DNA from: an uncultured virus (IMG/VR IMGVR_UViG_3300030329_004627) | Lineage: Duplodnaviria; Heunggongvirae; Uroviricota; Caudoviricetes | IMG/VR virus record: IMGVR_UViG_3300030329_004627 | Direction: 5' to 3' (one strand) | Length of the DNA: 20,000 nucleotides | Shown here: piece after piece, positions 7,684 to 13,204 of the stretch | How positions within the stretch are numbered: the stretch's first letter is position 1 | How the letters are laid out: every line of letters starts with the position of its first letter | The notes under the pieces: generated by a model | Told to the model about the DNA's origin: nothing | Seen by the model: only the letters and a program-made list of their open reading frames with translations | The model's database searches: none | Position numbers and translations under genes: made by a program

Positions 7684-8970
7684 ATGGCCACAATTGAACG
7701 AGGATTTATAGTAGATAATCAAAATGACGCATTCAACGCTTTTGCAAAAAAGATAAGATATCGCACGTACACTCGTAGTGATGCGGCCCATGTAATTGAT
7801 TTTAATTTGGGAGAGATGGTTTATTATGGACGAATGGACAATTTTAATATACCGGTATCATTGGGTGCTTCTCCTCAAAAGATGCTCGCACCGACAAGGC
7901 GCACTAAGAGCGTTGTTGAGCCAGAATATGGATTAAACTTTGTTATGATGGTATTTGAAGAGATGGCTCTCCATTTTGAAAAAGCCGTCGCCACCCGACA
8001 GATACTTCCCTCAGAGAAGTATCTCTCTAATCTTACAGTCTATCGGGGATTTGACGATCCGTGGATAAGATATCGCTCCTACACGGGAACTTATCTGCGC
8101 TCGCTGTATGGCAGCATGTTAAACCTCGGATTAAATCCTACTAATACATTTAAAAACATGAAAGAACTATTGAATTTTTTTCCTGCTTTTACGCAAGAGA
8201 TGGCACTTACAACTCCTTTTACTTATCCTTCTTATATAAAAAGCCGGATGGGCGACATATTAGGAAGCGGCTTGGCTTTGGAATTAGCCGACTTGTCCTA
8301 CTCTAATGATGAGGAAAAAATAAATCATTTTTATAATAGTCGTACGTGGAACTATTATGTTAATGCCTGTAATGAGTTTGGATTTAGAATAGACGCAAAT
8401 ATTCCTTGGCGCATCGTGGCCGATATAGACTCCAGTATAATGAAGTTTGCGGCCAACCGCCTTCAGATGCCCGGTGGAAGATTTATTTTTTCTTCTCTTT
8501 ATGAAAAAGGCGCCCAGACGTATTTGCGAAATATGCCCAAGCTGCTTCTAGAGATGTATAATCTACTTTCGCCGACAGCCTATGAAGAGCGCACTTCGTG
8601 TCCTGCCGGTGGCGAGGTAAGAAAGATTAAGCGCATGCGTACATATCAGAATTACGACCAAGTGCTTGCCGAAATCGATATTAAAGATATTCTCACTTTC
8701 TATATGAGACTGCGCCTTAATGAGCAAATGCCCGAGATGGATACATTTCAACGAGATACGATCATGAGCGATTGCCTGAAATTATATCAATCATCTGGAC
8801 AACTTACCCTCCCACTAACAATTTTCGAATCGATTGTTTCATCTACTATTGACAAGATTGGATCTTTCAGTTATCATAAGAAGCATATACAAGCTTTCTA
8901 TAAGCAGATGTATGACAGGGGCGAAATTGACGCGCTTCAAGTAGAGGCTCAGATTGGGGGTGGCTATTGA
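7684..8970 (+). CDS. Hypothetical phage protein (428 aa)
   Basis: Long ORF with SD AAGGAG at 7671-7676. No recognisable motif. Its TGA stop overlaps the next TTG start (TTGA). Confidence 0.75.
   Translation: MATIERGFIVDNQNDAFNAFAKKIRYRTYTRSDAAHVIDFNLGEMVYYGRMDNFNIPVSLGASPQKMLAPTRRTKSVVEPEYGLNFVMMVFEEMALHFEKAVATRQILPSEKYLSNLTVYRGFDDPWIRYRSYTGTYLRSLYGSMLNLGLNPTNTFKNMKELLNFFPAFTQEMALTTPFTYPSYIKSRMGDILGSGLALELADLSYSNDEEKINHFYNSRTWNYYVNACNEFGFRIDANIPWRIVADIDSSIMKFAANRLQMPGGRFIFSSLYEKGAQTYLRNMPKLLLEMYNLLSPTAYEERTSCPAGGEVRKIKRMRTYQNYDQVLAEIDIKDILTFYMRLRLNEQMPEMDTFQRDTIMSDCLKLYQSSGQLTLPLTIFESIVSSTIDKIGSFSYHKKHIQAFYKQMYDRGEIDALQVEAQIGGGY
8849..8877 (+). promoter_or_regulatory. Sigma70-type promoter inside the 428-aa gene, upstream of the mini-PolA
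   Basis: TTGACA (8849-8854), 17-bp spacer, TATCAT (8872-8877). Confidence 0.65.
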
Positions 8971-10142
8971 TATTTCAGGCACTTGACGATAAGTCAGAAT
9001 GTATTGGAATTTACGCAGATGGCAAGTTATCGTTTGAAAATTTTCCAGAAAATTTAACACAGACATGGCGCTACAGCGCATCTATCACAGACCCATCGGT
9101 GGAGTATGCCTGGATACGTGCTGGTGGGCGCAATATCACCGATTGCTGCCCAGAAGATTTATGTAACGAACTTCAGGCTACGATAAGAAAAATGAAGGCG
9201 TATTTGAAGTCTTTTAAGATTGCGAAAGTTAATATGGCGGATCATTGTGTGTTTGACTTGATCCCTCACGATTTCCTTGTACGGTTTTGCGAGATCAAAA
9301 ATAAAATTACAGAGCATGTGTTCAGTACATACGAGAAGCCAGATAATTACGAGCACTTAGACGCGGTATATAAGTTGCTTCACAAGATTCGTTATCAGAA
9401 GCTTAATCTTAATAGCGAAGATTGTAAGCACTTGTTTTATTCTTCTATGAATCGTCAAAAGATCCAAGAGCTTATGAAGAACTTTAGGCGCATTGATTAT
9501 AATATGTTTGGCACCGTCACCGGTCGCCTCACAACACACCCAGAATCGTTTCCCATTCTTACGCTAAAGAAGGATCTGCGCCGAATAATCAAGCCTCACA
9601 ATGACTTGATGATGAGTCTTGATTATAATGGTGCTGAGATTCGCACACTGCTAGACTTGTGTGGCCAAGAGCAGCCCGAGTATGATATTCACGAATGGAA
9701 TATTCAGAACGTTATCAATGATTTAGAGATGACTCGCGAAGAGGCAAAGCTTTACTTCTTTGCTTGGTTGTATAATCCACAATCAAACGATATTGATTCA
9801 GAGTATTACGATCGTGAAAAAGTTCTTGACAAGTATTACAAAGACGGTTATATTCATACTCCATACGGACGAAAAATTAAAGTGGAGCAAAGAAAGGCGT
9901 TGAATTACTTAATCCAAAGCACAACCGCCGACCGCGTTTTAGAAAAAGCCGTTCTGGTTGACCAGATGCTTGAAGGCAAGAAGTCGTTCATTTCGCATAT
10001 AGTTCACGATGAGATTGTGATTGACTATTCGGATGAAGATCGTGATATAGTGATTGGCCTTCGCGATGTCTTCGAAGGCGGCTTTATGGCCAACTTGCGT
10101 GCGGGAAAAGATTATTATAATTTGAATGAGATAAAGCTATGA
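8967..10142 (+). CDS. polA: Compact family-A DNA polymerase (polymerase core only)
   Basis: Contains TVTGRL, motif A LDYNGAEIR (cf. DYSQIELR), motif B REEAKLYFFAWLYN, GYIHTPYGR, ALNYLIQSTTAD (cf. N-x-PIQGTAAD) and motif C IVHDEIV. Only 391 aa. The TTG start overlaps the upstream stop. Confidence 0.85.
   Translation: MIFQALDDKSECIGIYADGKLSFENFPENLTQTWRYSASITDPSVEYAWIRAGGRNITDCCPEDLCNELQATIRKMKAYLKSFKIAKVNMADHCVFDLIPHDFLVRFCEIKNKITEHVFSTYEKPDNYEHLDAVYKLLHKIRYQKLNLNSEDCKHLFYSSMNRQKIQELMKNFRRIDYNMFGTVTGRLTTHPESFPILTLKKDLRRIIKPHNDLMMSLDYNGAEIRTLLDLCGQEQPEYDIHEWNIQNVINDLEMTREEAKLYFFAWLYNPQSNDIDSEYYDREKVLDKYYKDGYIHTPYGRKIKVEQRKALNYLIQSTTADRVLEKAVLVDQMLEGKKSFISHIVHDEIVIDYSDEDRDIVIGLRDVFEGGFMANLRAGKDYYNLNEIKL
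9826..9854 (+). promoter_or_regulatory. Sigma70-type promoter inside the polymerase gene, upstream of the tubulin-like gene
   Basis: TTGACA (9826-9831), 17-bp spacer, TATATT (9849-9854). Confidence 0.55.
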
Positions 10143-10978
10143 TTTCGATCGTTGGGCTAGGCTCGGCAGCGTCTAAAATTGCTGAAAAATTCAAGCAGAC
10201 TAAAAACTATAATGTCTATGTAATGAACGGCAATGTAGAAAGAAACAGCAAGTATAAATTTAAACTTAAAACGTATGATACACCAGAGGAATACGAAGCC
10301 AATATTCCTAATGTTAAGAAATTTCTGGGAACCTCTGATGAGCATATTCAGATTTTTATTGTAGGCTCTTCATTAAGCTCAGCTTATGCTTTGGGAATCT
10401 TAGAACAAATTAAGCATCGTAAGATTGATGTGTTCTATATTCAGCCTGATGGAGAGCTGATGACAGGTGTGCCCAAACTGTTAGACCGCGCTGTTTTTAG
10501 TATATTACAGGAGTATGCTCGATCCGGACTGTTAGCTTCTTTTACTGCGATGTCAAATGTTGCAATTGAAAAGACCATAGGAGATATTCCTATCAAACAT
10601 TATTATGATAGAATAAATGATTCGATTTTTTCAACAGTTCATTATATAAATTATTTCAACCATGCGGAACCAGAAATTGGAATGACATCGAAGCCCCTCG
10701 ATATTAATCGTATTAGAACTTATGGAATTTTAAATACTAAAAATTTAGAAGAAAAATGGCTATATCAACTTGACATGGGTCGCGACCTATGTTATTATCT
10801 ATGTATCAATAACAAACGATTAGAAAACGAAGGAGGATTGCACAAGAAGATAGTCGACATGCTCAAGGAAAAACCTAGAAACGCATTTCGGAAAATTTCT
10901 TACGCAATCTATGAAACAGAACACAACGATTTTGGGCTCTGCGTTGCCCATACTAACGCAGTACAAGAATACACTTGA
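10139..10978 (+). CDS. Divergent tubulin/FtsZ-like protein
   Basis: The N-terminal ISIVGLGSAASKIAEKF matches the FtsZ/tubulin T1 strand-loop-helix. IFIVGSSLSSAYALGIL sits where GGGTGSG is expected. FYIQP and AMSN-x(14)-YDRINDSI match later FtsZ-fold elements. ATGA overlap with the polymerase stop. Confidence 0.55.
   Translation: MISIVGLGSAASKIAEKFKQTKNYNVYVMNGNVERNSKYKFKLKTYDTPEEYEANIPNVKKFLGTSDEHIQIFIVGSSLSSAYALGILEQIKHRKIDVFYIQPDGELMTGVPKLLDRAVFSILQEYARSGLLASFTAMSNVAIEKTIGDIPIKHYYDRINDSIFSTVHYINYFNHAEPEIGMTSKPLDINRIRTYGILNTKNLEEKWLYQLDMGRDLCYYLCINNKRLENEGGLHKKIVDMLKEKPRNAFRKISYAIYETEHNDFGLCVAHTNAVQEYT
10770..10798 (+). promoter_or_regulatory. Sigma70-type promoter with extended -10 and palindromic spacer, inside the tubulin-like gene
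   Basis: TTGACA (10770-10775), 17-bp spacer ending TGT, then TATTAT (10793-10798). Bases 10773-10792 (ACATGGGTCGCGACCTATGT) form a near-perfect palindrome. Confidence 0.6.
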
Positions 10979-11003
10979 CAAGCTACGTTGAGTGTCATAC
11001 AAT
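10975..11003 (+). promoter_or_regulatory. Sigma70-type promoter for the SSB gene
   Basis: TTGACA (10975-10980, overlapping the upstream TGA stop), 17-bp spacer, TACAAT (10998-11003). SD AAGGAG at 11043-11048. Confidence 0.8.
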
Positions 11004-11055: not shown

Positions 11056-11826
11056 ATGGGAATCAATATGGAACTGATGCGGCAAAAGCTCGCATCCCTT
11101 CGCGGCGAAGGAAACAAGGACGCAAACTCACCCTGGTTCAAGCCAGATGAGGGCGATACAGATATTCGGATCGTGCCGACAAATGATGGCGATCCATTGA
11201 AGGAAATGTTCTTCCACTATAATGTGGGCGAGCATCGCGGAGGTATCCTCTGTCCAAAGCGCAACTTTGGCGAGCACTGCCCCGTATGTGAATTTGCTTC
11301 TTCGCTTTGGCGCGAGGGAGTTGACAACAACGATGAGGAGAGCAAGAAGCTTGCGAAGAGTCTCTTCGTGCGCACCCGCTATTTCTCGCCCGTTGTTATC
11401 CGTGGTCGCGAAGACGAGGGCATCAAGGTCTACGGCTACGGAAAGCAGGCTTATGAGCTACTTTTGGGATACATTCTGGATCCCGAATACGGAGACATCA
11501 CTGATGTGAAGGAGGGTACGGACATTACCCTTACTTATACCAAGCCCAACAAGCCTGGAGCGTATCCCCAGACAAACCTAAAGATGCGTCGAAATACGTC
11601 CACCCTCCTGGCAGACAGCGAAGCGATCCCCGCCCTCCTCGATCGCATGCCTGACTTTGACAATCTATTCGATCGTCTTAGTCCAGCCCAGGTCGACGCA
11701 ATCCTCGATGAGCAGCTTTCGGGAAGTTCTTCCGCAGAAAGTCGCTCGTCTGAGACAGCCAAGTACGGTGCCACCAATGGTAAGAGTGATGTAGACCGTG
11801 CGTTTGATGAATTGATGACAGGCTAG
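11056..11826 (+). CDS. T4 gp32-like single-stranded DNA-binding protein
   Basis: Contains WFKP...IRIVP, the Zn ligand set HYNV...LCPK...HCPVCE, YGYGKQAYELL, YGDITDVKEGTDITLTY, and an acidic tail DVDRAFDELM. Start moved from TTG 10975 to ATG 11056, which has an SD site; 10975 is the promoter -35 box. Confidence 0.9.
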   Translation: MGINMELMRQKLASLRGEGNKDANSPWFKPDEGDTDIRIVPTNDGDPLKEMFFHYNVGEHRGGILCPKRNFGEHCPVCEFASSLWREGVDNNDEESKKLAKSLFVRTRYFSPVVIRGREDEGIKVYGYGKQAYELLLGYILDPEYGDITDVKEGTDITLTYTKPNKPGAYPQTNLKMRRNTSTLLADSEAIPALLDRMPDFDNLFDRLSPAQVDAILDEQLSGSSSAESRSSETAKYGATNGKSDVDRAFDELMTG

Positions 11827-11848
11827 TAGTAAATAGGTGAGTCTAGTA

Positions 11849-11881
11849 CCGATGGCAGAGCGGGGTTGAAATACTCTGCCA
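11849..11881 (+). other. Structured RNA element copy 1 (hairpin, possible pseudoknot)
   Basis: CCGA-TGGCAGAG-CGGGGTTGAAATA-CTCTGCCA, an 8-bp stem. Paralogous to 12010-12037. Confidence 0.7.
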
Positions 11882-11902
11882 AATTTTCCAAAAGGAGGGA
11901 TT

Positions 11903-12001
11903 ATGAAGTACGCTGTACTAATCGCCGCATGCGCTCTAATGAGCGGATGCGGAGACGCTGAAGAAGATACTGGCGAAGACACCGCAGTCGCCGCTGAGTA
12001 A
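11903..12001 (+). CDS. Tiny acidic lipoprotein (32 aa), not in the ORF track
   Basis: MKYAVLIAACALMSGC-GDAEEDTGEDTAVAAE*: basic N-terminus, hydrophobic core, lipobox-like MSGC at Cys16. Strong SD AAGGAGG at 11892-11898. Confidence 0.75.
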   Translation: MKYAVLIAACALMSGCGDAEEDTGEDTAVAAE

Positions 12002-12009
12002 AACAAAAG

Positions 12010-12047
12010 CCGCTGGCAGACCGGTGAAAAGTCTGCCGCATTTTTTT
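12010..12047 (+). terminator. Structured RNA element copy 2 / probable intrinsic terminator
   Basis: CCGCT-GGCAGAC-CGGTGAAAA-GTCTGCC-GCA-TTTTTTT: a 7-bp GC-rich stem followed by a T7 run, 14 nt before the recA start. Confidence 0.6.
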
Positions 12048-12061
12048 AACAAGAGGGCTTT

Positions 12062-13204
12062 ATGGCAAAGAAAACAAAAACAAAAGCAGGTCGGGTTGGA
12101 CTACAAGACTTGATGACCTTAGTGAATAAGAAAGCCGGCAGAAATGTCGCACACGATTTAACCGGAGATAATCCAACCTCCGTTAAAGATTGGATCCCAA
12201 CAGGCTCCCGCTGGCTTGACTCTATTATTTGTAAGGGGCGCCGCGCCGGCATTCCGGTTGGTAAAGTAACTGAGATTGCCGGATTAGAATCTACAGGTAA
12301 ATCTTACATGGCAGCACAAATCGCAGCCAACGCCCAGAAACAAGGAAAATTGGTTGTATATTTTGATTCTGAATCAGCAATCGACCCAACTTTTCTAGAG
12401 CAAGCAGGCTGCGATTTGAGCCGTCTAATGTATGTTCAAGCATCCTCTGTCGAGTTTGTGTTGGAAACCATCGAGGAGTTGCTAGGGGCTACGGATGAGA
12501 AGCTTGTTTTAATTTGGGATTCGTTGGCATTTACGCCTGCTGTCTCGGATGTTGAAGGCGACTTCAATCCACAATCTTCAATGGCAATGAAGGCACGTAT
12601 TCTTGCGAAGGGTATGTCAAAGTTGACGATTCCTATTGCTGATAAGCAAGCTACTTTCATTGTGCTCAATCAGTTGAAGACTAACATCCCACAAGGGCCG
12701 ACAGCGCGCATTGTCGCGATGACGACACCTTATATTACCCCAGGCGGAAAGGCTATGCATTATGCCTACTCTTTGCGCATCTGGCTCACCGGCCGCAAGG
12801 CCAAGTCTTCGTTCGTTGTAGATGAGAAAGGGTTCCGCATTGGATCGGAGGTTAAGATCAAACTTGAGAAGTCTCGCTTTGGAACTCAGGGTAGATCCTG
12901 CGCTTTCCGTATTCTCTGGGGTAACGAGATTGGCATCCGAGACGAGGAAAGCTGGTTTGACGCGATCAAGTCATCTGAGCACCTGACTTCTGCCGGCGCG
13001 TGGTATACGTTAAAGATGGAGGACTACGAGAAAAAGTTTCAACCATCCAAATGGACACAACTAATTTCAACTGATGATGAATTTAAGAGTAGGGTTATGC
13101 GTCTAATGGACGAAGAGATAATCCAAAAGTTCGATAAACGTGAAGGCAGCGCCGAAGCATACTACGCAGAGCCAGAGGATCTAACAGTACCACACAAGGA
13201 GTAA
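12062..13204 (+). CDS. recA: RecA/UvsX-family recombinase
   Basis: Contains IPTGSRWLD, GIPVGKVTEIAGLESTGKS (Walker A), YFDSESAID, LIWDSLA (Walker B), LNQLK and TPGGKAMHYAYSLRI. Confidence 0.95.
   Translation: MAKKTKTKAGRVGLQDLMTLVNKKAGRNVAHDLTGDNPTSVKDWIPTGSRWLDSIICKGRRAGIPVGKVTEIAGLESTGKSYMAAQIAANAQKQGKLVVYFDSESAIDPTFLEQAGCDLSRLMYVQASSVEFVLETIEELLGATDEKLVLIWDSLAFTPAVSDVEGDFNPQSSMAMKARILAKGMSKLTIPIADKQATFIVLNQLKTNIPQGPTARIVAMTTPYITPGGKAMHYAYSLRIWLTGRKAKSSFVVDEKGFRIGSEVKIKLEKSRFGTQGRSCAFRILWGNEIGIRDEESWFDAIKSSEHLTSAGAWYTLKMEDYEKKFQPSKWTQLISTDDEFKSRVMRLMDEEIIQKFDKREGSAEAYYAEPEDLTVPHKE

Follow-up and report, generated by a model that had tools for sequence, protein, structure and literature searches.

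A compact RNA pseudoknot repeated behind phage SSB and capsid genes, and its possible role as the 3' boundary of the upstream message

[quoted passage not shown] This arrangement raises the question of what the repeated element is, and which of its neighbours it serves. Judged by its gene set (family A polymerase, gp32-like SSB, RecA, 5'-3' exonuclease, DnaB, class II ribonucleotide reductase, and amidase), the window is a piece of a large T4-like phage. All features of the locus described here lie on the plus strand. The SSB operon begins with a sigma70-type promoter (TTGACA-17-TACAAT, 10975..11003) that matches the consensus at 11 of 12 positions and overlaps the stop codon of the upstream gene, an arrangement likewise seen in the leaders of relatives. 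The gp32-like SSB gene follows at 11056..11826 (Pfam gp32, E 1e-14) and ends in three stop codons in tandem. Copy 1 of the element (11849..11880), placed like copy 2 by sequence and comparison, lies 22 nt past the SSB stop and precedes a stretch (11884..11898) with a short U run and a Shine-Dalgarno sequence (SD), AGGAGG (11893-98), both read from the sequence. Next comes a 32-aa cassette gene (11903..12001), whose product appears lipoprotein-like from its hydrophobic leader, Cys, and acidic tail; a Pfam search of this protein returned no match. Copy 2 (12010..12037) lies 8 nt past the cassette stop. It is followed (12041..12057) by a 7-U tract (12041-47) that begins 4 nt past its second stem and by an SD-like GAGGG, again read from the sequence, and then by the recA gene at 12062..13204 (Pfam RecA, E 1e-35). 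No promoter-like site was found on the plus strand between SSB and recA (11826 to 12062).

The original prediction had placed two hairpins with pseudoknot potential at 11849-11880 and 12010-12037, and both are present there. By sequence and comparison, each copy is a compact H-type RNA pseudoknot of 28-35 nt, with an S1 of 3-4 bp, an L1 of 2 nt, an S2 of 7 bp that a U-A or U-G pair extends, and an L3 rich in A; L2 is absent. Copy 1 consists of S1 CCG (11849-51) and CGG (11861-63), L1 AT (11852-53), S2 GGCAGAG (11854-60) and CTCTGCC (11874-80), and L3 (11864-73). In copy 2, S1 is formed by CCG (12010-12) and CGG (12022-24), extended by a G12009-U12025 pair, with L1 CT (12013-14), S2 GGCAGAC (12015-21) and GTCTGCC (12031-37), and L3 (12025-30). 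The closing pair of S2 thus switches from G-C to C-G between copies (GGCAGAG/CTCTGCC versus GGCAGAC/GTCTGCC), as had been proposed, and the copies do end 22 and 24 nt ahead of the ATGs at 11903 and 12062. A U-tract had been attributed to copy 2 only; this needed correction, since copy 1 also has a run of four U at 11884-87. Exact matches to the shared pattern, CCGNNGGCAGANCGG, are limited in the window to these two copies. Copy 1 resembles what we take to be a tRNA-Ser-like sequence; that reading was rejected, as the window holds no tRNA. Taken singly, the hairpins are weak evidence (z about -2), and proof of the element therefore rests on comparison.

S1 was tested blind with two IMG/VR scans in which S2 and the junction pair were fixed, the 5' side of S1 was left free, and the usual 3'-side G was forbidden at the third (scan 1) or second (scan 2) S1 position. 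Among the matches listed, scan 1 gave both S1 pairs in 66 of 77 distinct cores, against 36.5 after shuffling, and pair 3 was G-C in 40, U-A in 17, and A-U in 8. In scan 2, both S1 pairs formed in 35 of 49 distinct cores against 9.9 after shuffling, with U-A (23) and G-C (12) at pair 2; six of the 14 failures came from one phage family whose loop lengthens the hairpin instead. The compensated partners in both scans demonstrate that the pairing is conserved, and not the letters. Hence the suggested complementarity of CCG and CGG holds as a pairing, and the pseudoknot potential as a conserved cis RNA fold, whereas a fixed CCG/CGG sequence does not, as other pairs substitute for it. An ordinary terminator with a random loop was rejected, because the loop pairs and covaries with the 5' flank.

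Further support came from protein-selected sets. There the descriptor requires S1 pairs 1-3, which are present in 74 of 74 cores by construction; the fourth pair, which is not required, formed in 48 of 74 (five rows without the fold removed) against 30.9 after shuffling, and pairs 5 and 6 (22/74 and 29/74) stayed at shuffle level and are unsupported. An alignment of 52 sequences, made of the two window copies and 50 of the 74 cores after exclusion of near-duplicates and off-geometry rows, was paired in 94.9% of its cells and showed changes on both sides of 9 of 12 pairs, counts of a kind that kinship inflates; within S2, two-sided change was found at 7 of 8 pairs. S2 covaries freely within the gp32 lineage, and S1 across phages. 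The sense strand carries G-U pairs, and 300 of 306 called cases have the element in the same sense as the upstream gene, with orientation taken from a codon-score caller that had 107 of 107 known gene ends right. Together, the G-U pairs and the sense orientation indicate that the element acts as RNA.

Upstream of the SSB promoter, positions 8967-10978 hold a short family A polymerase gene (391 aa) and then a 279-aa gene without a Pfam match at the cut-off, which we suspect to encode a tubulin-like protein. Within the last codons of the latter lies a candidate third pseudoknot (10933-10961, plus strand), with stems UGGG/CCCA and CUGCGUU/AACGCAG. Its synonymous positions are almost frozen across 50 distinct relatives, and the sole covarying pair is the terminal S2 pair (35 of 50 against 29.2 after shuffling). 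As the promoter leaves no UTR there, this candidate may protect the 3' end of the upstream operon.

In order to place the element in relatives, we used 157 IMG/VR loci obtained from RecA and SSB searches (best 80 of 562 and best 80 of 489). A letter-free structural descriptor gave 299 sense-strand matches (272 of them starting with CCG) versus 32 on the opposite strand, and 165 of 169 distinct CCG matches were located after SSB and/or before recA. A copy stands 3' of SSB in all 92 distinct SSB-recA intervals, a count in which L150, a U-G variant, was entered by hand and L021, L032, and L150 are like the second type described below. Directly before recA, a copy was found in 49 of the 92, and in 34 of the 77 intervals that hold inserts. 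The number of copies per interval was one in 37 cases, two in 40, three in 11, four in 3, and five in 1. Fifteen intervals are empty sites of 63-87 nt, with one copy and no gene between SSB and recA, and seven intervals with 3-4 copies contain no sigma70-like match. Read-through is therefore needed, since the empty sites are too short for a promoter and the seven multi-copy intervals lack a recognisable one. A role specific to SSB-to-recA read-through, as originally proposed, finds no support in these data: the element tracks the upstream gene in every interval, recA in about half of them, and it also follows capsid and tail-tube genes.

The inserts themselves differ in kind. Small ones encode lipoprotein-like proteins of 32-37 aa, membrane-anchored proteins of 64-99 aa, or 62-aa Hc1-like proteins, and they nearly always end in a 3' copy of their own; the lipoprotein-like gene and its 3' pseudoknot are present or absent as a unit among relatives. 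Large inserts (Dam methylases, a MunI-like nuclease) often come without one. The idea that the lipoprotein gene entered as a cassette is borne out by the 15 of 92 relatives with a single copy and no gene, and by small genes that bring their own 3' copy. Near-identical copies probably also serve as recombination junctions for the gain and loss of cassettes. By analogy with the shuffling via repeats proposed for the PeSLs of T4-like phages (PMC4122927), such cassette shuffling is likely a side effect. Within the intervals of L024, L041, L047, L078, and L464, a tRNA with a CAU anticodon is inserted straight after a copy, and the 62-aa cassette protein of L014 (3737-3922) matches the histone H1-like Hc1 domain (PF07432). 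Some copies are thus followed by a tRNA, others by a new sigma70-like promoter.

A covariance model found 5, 2, and 3 copies in three complete genomes, all inside the SSB-recA interval, with one further weak match outside it (E 0.2). A genome-wide repeat was thereby rejected. The same model found no copies in two genomes reached via loci of a distant clade. In the cultured distant relatives Flavobacterium immuto and Microcystis Mel-JY01 (31-35% identity), the SSB-recA gaps of 2 and 8 nt leave no room for the element.

The element is nevertheless widespread beyond this lineage. An IMG/VR scan that did not require the 5' CCG returned at least 121 stretches. Among the matches listed, 110 distinct ones have a closed S2, and 99 of these carry CCG at the expected spot; of 14 with a mismatched closing pair, none does. 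No homologue of SSB, recA, or the cassettes could be detected in the loci of 48 of the 99 CCG-bearing matches. When 25 upstream ORFs from non-lineage loci were examined, five proved to be gp2.5-like or other SSBs, two major capsid genes, and one a tail gene. For the paired blind-scan variants, upstream ORFs were usable in 78 of 101 and, among the matches listed, 14 could be named (8 SSB, 2 capsid, 3 lipoprotein, 1 polymerase). The SSB families followed by the element are gp32-like, gp2.5-like, and bacterial-type; tail-tube genes and one solute-binding protein gene also carry it on their 3' side. Among distinct protein-selected 3'UTRs, it was present in 45 of 45 of a podovirus capsid family, in 17 of 20 of the gp2.5-like family by score (15 once two plain terminators were removed by eye), and, under the same scoring, in 93 of 94 gp32 3'UTRs. 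The controls gave 6 of 78 for recA 3' ends, none of type I (the form found in the window), and 6 of 1185 for shuffles.

The core further occurs in at least 124 metagenome stretches and, as an exact match, in 62 GTDB stretches. The latter are mostly prophage-like loci (Verrucomicrobia, Lentisphaerae, alphaproteobacteria, Myxococcales, Nitrospira), with a few chromosomal 3' regions, namely those of an aldehyde dehydrogenase gene in Bradyrhizobium and of a solute-binding protein gene in Methylocaldum and Methyloversatilis, the last recognised via its matching C-terminus. Some GC-rich GTDB matches are probably due to chance. The cultured Xanthomonas phage XAJ2 has an intergenic variant with S1 AGCG/CGCU; blastn of the region and the motif against cultured phages and plasmids gave short matches only, that in XAJ2 among them.

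Three groups of these loci deserve mention in their own right. In Victivallaceae/Lentisphaerae loci (L283, L292, L300, L313, L318, L329), an extended -10-like promoter lies about 60 nt upstream of the motif; judged by eye, the order is promoter, short non-coding stretch, then motif and U run, and this promoter-motif stretch is probably a small RNA. Bradyrhizobium loci (L289, L302, L327, L337, L340) carry the motif, a CU-rich anti-SD-like stretch, and a terminator hairpin in varied gene contexts, the core sitting about 15-20 nt upstream of the separate hairpin. From its layout, this unit is a probable sRNA family, without an Rfam match. Lastly, L296 (Sphingomicrobium) has an exact core between two gene ends, presumably those of rpsO and pnp; it could be a chance match or part of a pnp leader.

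We then compared loop letters and 3' tails. TGAAA, which had been put forward as a conserved loop motif, is present in just 32 of 551 distinct instances; what is kept instead is the A-rich end of L3 (A at position -3 in 88%), together with a conserved L1 pyrimidine (L1 is CU in 480 of 551). At least five T in +1..+8 occur in 184 of 551 distinct instances, and a canonical U-tract is therefore not required. Among 84 distinct first-copy tails, 78 have at least four T in +2..+9, and T frequency among relatives is 0.8-0.94 at +4..+7. In the gp32 set, the T-run is conserved at +4..+8, its onset at +4 (+7 in the capsid set) corresponding to an offset from the stem of 3 nt (6 nt for capsid), and an A/U-rich spacer and SD come after the element. 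Only 1 of 33 capsid tails has at least five T in +1..+8. A canonical intrinsic terminator was rejected, as the U-tract is not directly behind the stem and the loop is not free to vary. A readthrough or frameshift pseudoknot was likewise rejected in view of the variable spacer (7-11 nt for capsid), the unpreserved frame (next ATG in frames 0, 1, and 2 in 11, 16, and 18 of 45 cases), and the three tandem stops after the window SSB gene.

What replaces the element at orthologous sites proved informative. In a more distant gp32 clade (named matches 44-61% identical to the window SSB), a second pseudoknot-like type occupies 56 of 66 3'UTRs, for example just 3' of SSB in L453, L457, L464, L488, and others. 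This type II has an L1 of RCAGG, a covarying S2, an L3 ending in CAG, and one L2 purine that tracks the first L1 base (A.A in 18 and G.G in 12 of 30 cores); S1 by itself hardly covaries (pair 3, p 0.19), and 15 of 47 tails have at least four T. Types II and I stand in tandem in L453 and L462, and plain hairpin terminators hold the orthologous site in L427, L442, L446, L447, L489, and L528. The swaps among type I, type II, and plain terminators suggest that the site wants a stable 3' structure, for which a U-tract is optional.

These comparisons establish how the element folds, on which strand it lies, that it is tied to the upstream gene, that read-through is needed, and that terminators can take its place; from them we infer a function. 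The explanation that we favour, and to which we would give an even chance, is that the pseudoknot forms the 3' boundary of the preceding gene, a barrier to 3'-to-5' decay of the malE type. RNA polymerase would mostly pass through it. Once the downstream RNA had been cut and trimmed, or some termination had occurred at the offset U-tract, 3'-to-5' exonucleases would be held up by the GC-rich S2 helix, which S1 and loop contacts would brace. Messages for SSB, capsid, tail tube, and small membrane or nucleoid proteins would then outlive those downstream of them, a step-down like that of malE/malF, and every small gene gained between SSB and recA in the marine T4-like lineage would bring its own copy. 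Such a decay barrier fits the geometry, in which S1 is short and a long GC-rich S2 faces the 3' tail, as well as the place after bulk-product genes; the element sits 3' of high-demand genes in read-through units, with demand judged from gene family. Gene pairs around it are tandem in 215 cases, convergent in 3 (of which L726 is probably miscalled), and divergent in none, so that orientation alone hardly separates a 3' from a 5' linkage. Two observations sit less easily with this explanation: the conserved T-run in the gp32 set argues against a pure decay barrier, which needs none, and in Bradyrhizobium a 3' barrier looks redundant upstream of a terminator. Moreover, the S2/L1 core, which the search patterns fixed, recurs across phyla beyond what stability explains, and the over-representation of SSB genes may point to an SSB-specific role.

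Other explanations share part of this evidence. The T-run and the plain terminators at orthologous sites would also suit a leaky, structure-tuned intrinsic terminator or pause, which we consider unlikely. Here S2 would be the terminator stem, and S1 would keep the junction G and L1 off the 3' tail, blocking a longer hairpin that abuts the U-tract; competition by S1 would set the read-through fraction, and termination may act together with a decay barrier. The required pairs are available: in gp32, capsid, and gp2.5 contexts, respectively, the junction G can pair with +2 in 66/76, 24/26, and 7/12 cases, and the final base of L1 with +1 in 59/76, 22/26, and 12/12. The HMP-PP riboswitch offers a precedent for competition between pseudoknot and terminator (PMC6478431). 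However, the U-tract is offset from the stem, scarce in capsid tails, and absent at the four-T level from most type II tails, and in arrays of 3-4 copies that lack a sigma70-like promoter the losses before recA would multiply. The preference for SSB genes would instead be accounted for if free SSB used the pseudoknot as a nucleation site, as T4 gp32 uses its operator, and then either melted the knot, so that the SSB mRNA decays from its 3' end, or masked the recA ribosome-binding site. Like the gene 32 operator, the element is of the H-type class (PMC3014915); it follows three SSB families, and has the A/U-rich spacer and SD behind it in the gp32 set. The SSB genes, for their part, have no such knot in the transcribed leader: of 88 leader regions 8 scored, all eight upstream of or across the promoter. 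Yet capsid, tail-tube, lipoprotein, and solute-binding genes carry the element as well, no copy stands 5' of recA in 43 of 92 intervals, and some copies precede a tRNA or promoter; we regard SSB sensing as rather improbable. Equally improbable is a portable, protein-gated 3' lock in which, for three unrelated phage SSB families, excess free SSB would melt the knot and expose its own mRNA, while an ungated lock would stabilise capsid messages.

The element shares the sense of the downstream gene in 251 of 259 calls and often lies 20-30 nt ahead of a start codon. It could also stabilise the downstream RNA or promote its translation, if a cut occurred in the A-rich upstream stretch and the knot then blocked RNase J or RNase E as an xrRNA would. 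The Bradyrhizobium context, with the element at the head of an sRNA-like unit closed by a terminator of its own, favours this 5' reading. Against it, the element is kept where a promoter comes next and is lost before recA in the same 43 intervals, and the stem that a 5'-to-3' enzyme meets first has only 3-4 bp. Downstream genes such as those for a tail tubular protein, primase, exonuclease, and helicase are, furthermore, not usually needed in excess, and we hold such a 5' function to be distinctly improbable. Least probable of all, in our judgement very much so, is an undescribed class of small RNA that binds a ligand or cleaves itself. The same S2/L1 core in many host phyla, the predominant L3 A and L1 CU, and the type II A.A/G.G covariation would fit such an RNA, but both stems covary freely, the adjoining genes have no common metabolic theme, and no Rfam riboswitch or ribozyme model scores.

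Searches against Rfam 15 found no family covering the motif, whether in the window (E up to 5), at 19 viral loci (E up to 10), at 20 GTDB loci (gathering score), or at 12 type II loci (E up to 5). With the covariation of S1, this upholds the original prediction that the element exceeds a plain terminator. The exact motif sequences were found in no open full text, in a search covering open papers, and topic searches of the literature, whose scope excluded the PMC5737381 supplement and the PMC10690425 alignments, returned no description. The element is thus a real, widespread structured RNA without an Rfam family, and it falls in none of the families tested. Its mode of action is probably that of known 3' protective or terminator structures. 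In the malE-malF case, 3' protective intercistronic structures occur in differentially decaying operons; as described for them (PMC5927463), they lie, like this element, between high-demand upstream and lower-demand downstream genes of one transcription unit, and one cellular copy of the element likewise follows a solute-binding protein gene. In contrast to the hairpin there, the present element is a pseudoknot of conserved geometry. It is also found mostly in phages, as 1-5 copies at one locus per genome. The T2 gene 32 operator has a short L1 over a 7-bp S2, as in this element. That T4/T2 operator is an H-type pseudoknot in the SSB gene's own leader, and both structures stand beside a gp32-family gene (PMC3014915); the present element is 3' of the gene instead, and is repeated after other genes, including non-SSB ones.

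PeSLs of T4-like phages, too, are short conserved intergenic repeats around variable genes of a hyperplastic region (PMC4122927; see also PMC2839356). The bracketing of inserted or deleted genes is common to both, as seen in the empty and filled sites among the 92 intervals, whereas our element has no promoter in its unit, folds as a pseudoknot, and is confined to the SSB-recA interval. The STAXI motif (RF01728) is another pseudoknot near ssb and other DNA-handling genes, but it consists of two or three units in tandem, with UUCG loops, and comes from Enterobacteriales (PMC2864571); the STAXI sequences compared do not resemble this element. The STAXI covariance model did not match the element. 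Antitoxin RNAs of type III (ToxI-like) form head-to-tail repeats upstream of a cognate toxin nuclease gene; a ToxI-like RNA was rejected, as the copies are split by unrelated genes and the downstream genes vary. Closest in setting are candidates of Fremin et al. (2023), DNAVirus_1121 and DNAVirus_8655 (before RecA) and DNAVirus_2851 (before Dam), all marine (PMC10690425). The table of that paper describes them as Caudoviricetes elements of 50-58 nt, at most 25 nt from recA or dam, where copies of our element occur, and lists each of them as an upstream element that has a single covarying pair. They may be local pieces of this element, by a comparison made on the table description only.

It is assumed that the mRNAs of bacteria and phages end in simple hairpins. 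If the preferred 3'-boundary reading is correct, the pseudoknot would be a new class of 3'-end element, placed after SSB and capsid genes in unrelated phages and in several host phyla and interchangeable with terminators, which hairpin-based terminator finders and Rfam overlook. If SSB gates it, the 3' lock would amount to 3'-end autoregulation, the mirror image of the T4 gene 32 operator. Its small size suits biochemical and structural tests, the cultured phage XAJ2 carries it, and it could be used as a compact mRNA stabiliser. For the marine T4-like lineage itself, the element marks the junctions of a gene-capture hot spot that extends from SSB to recA.
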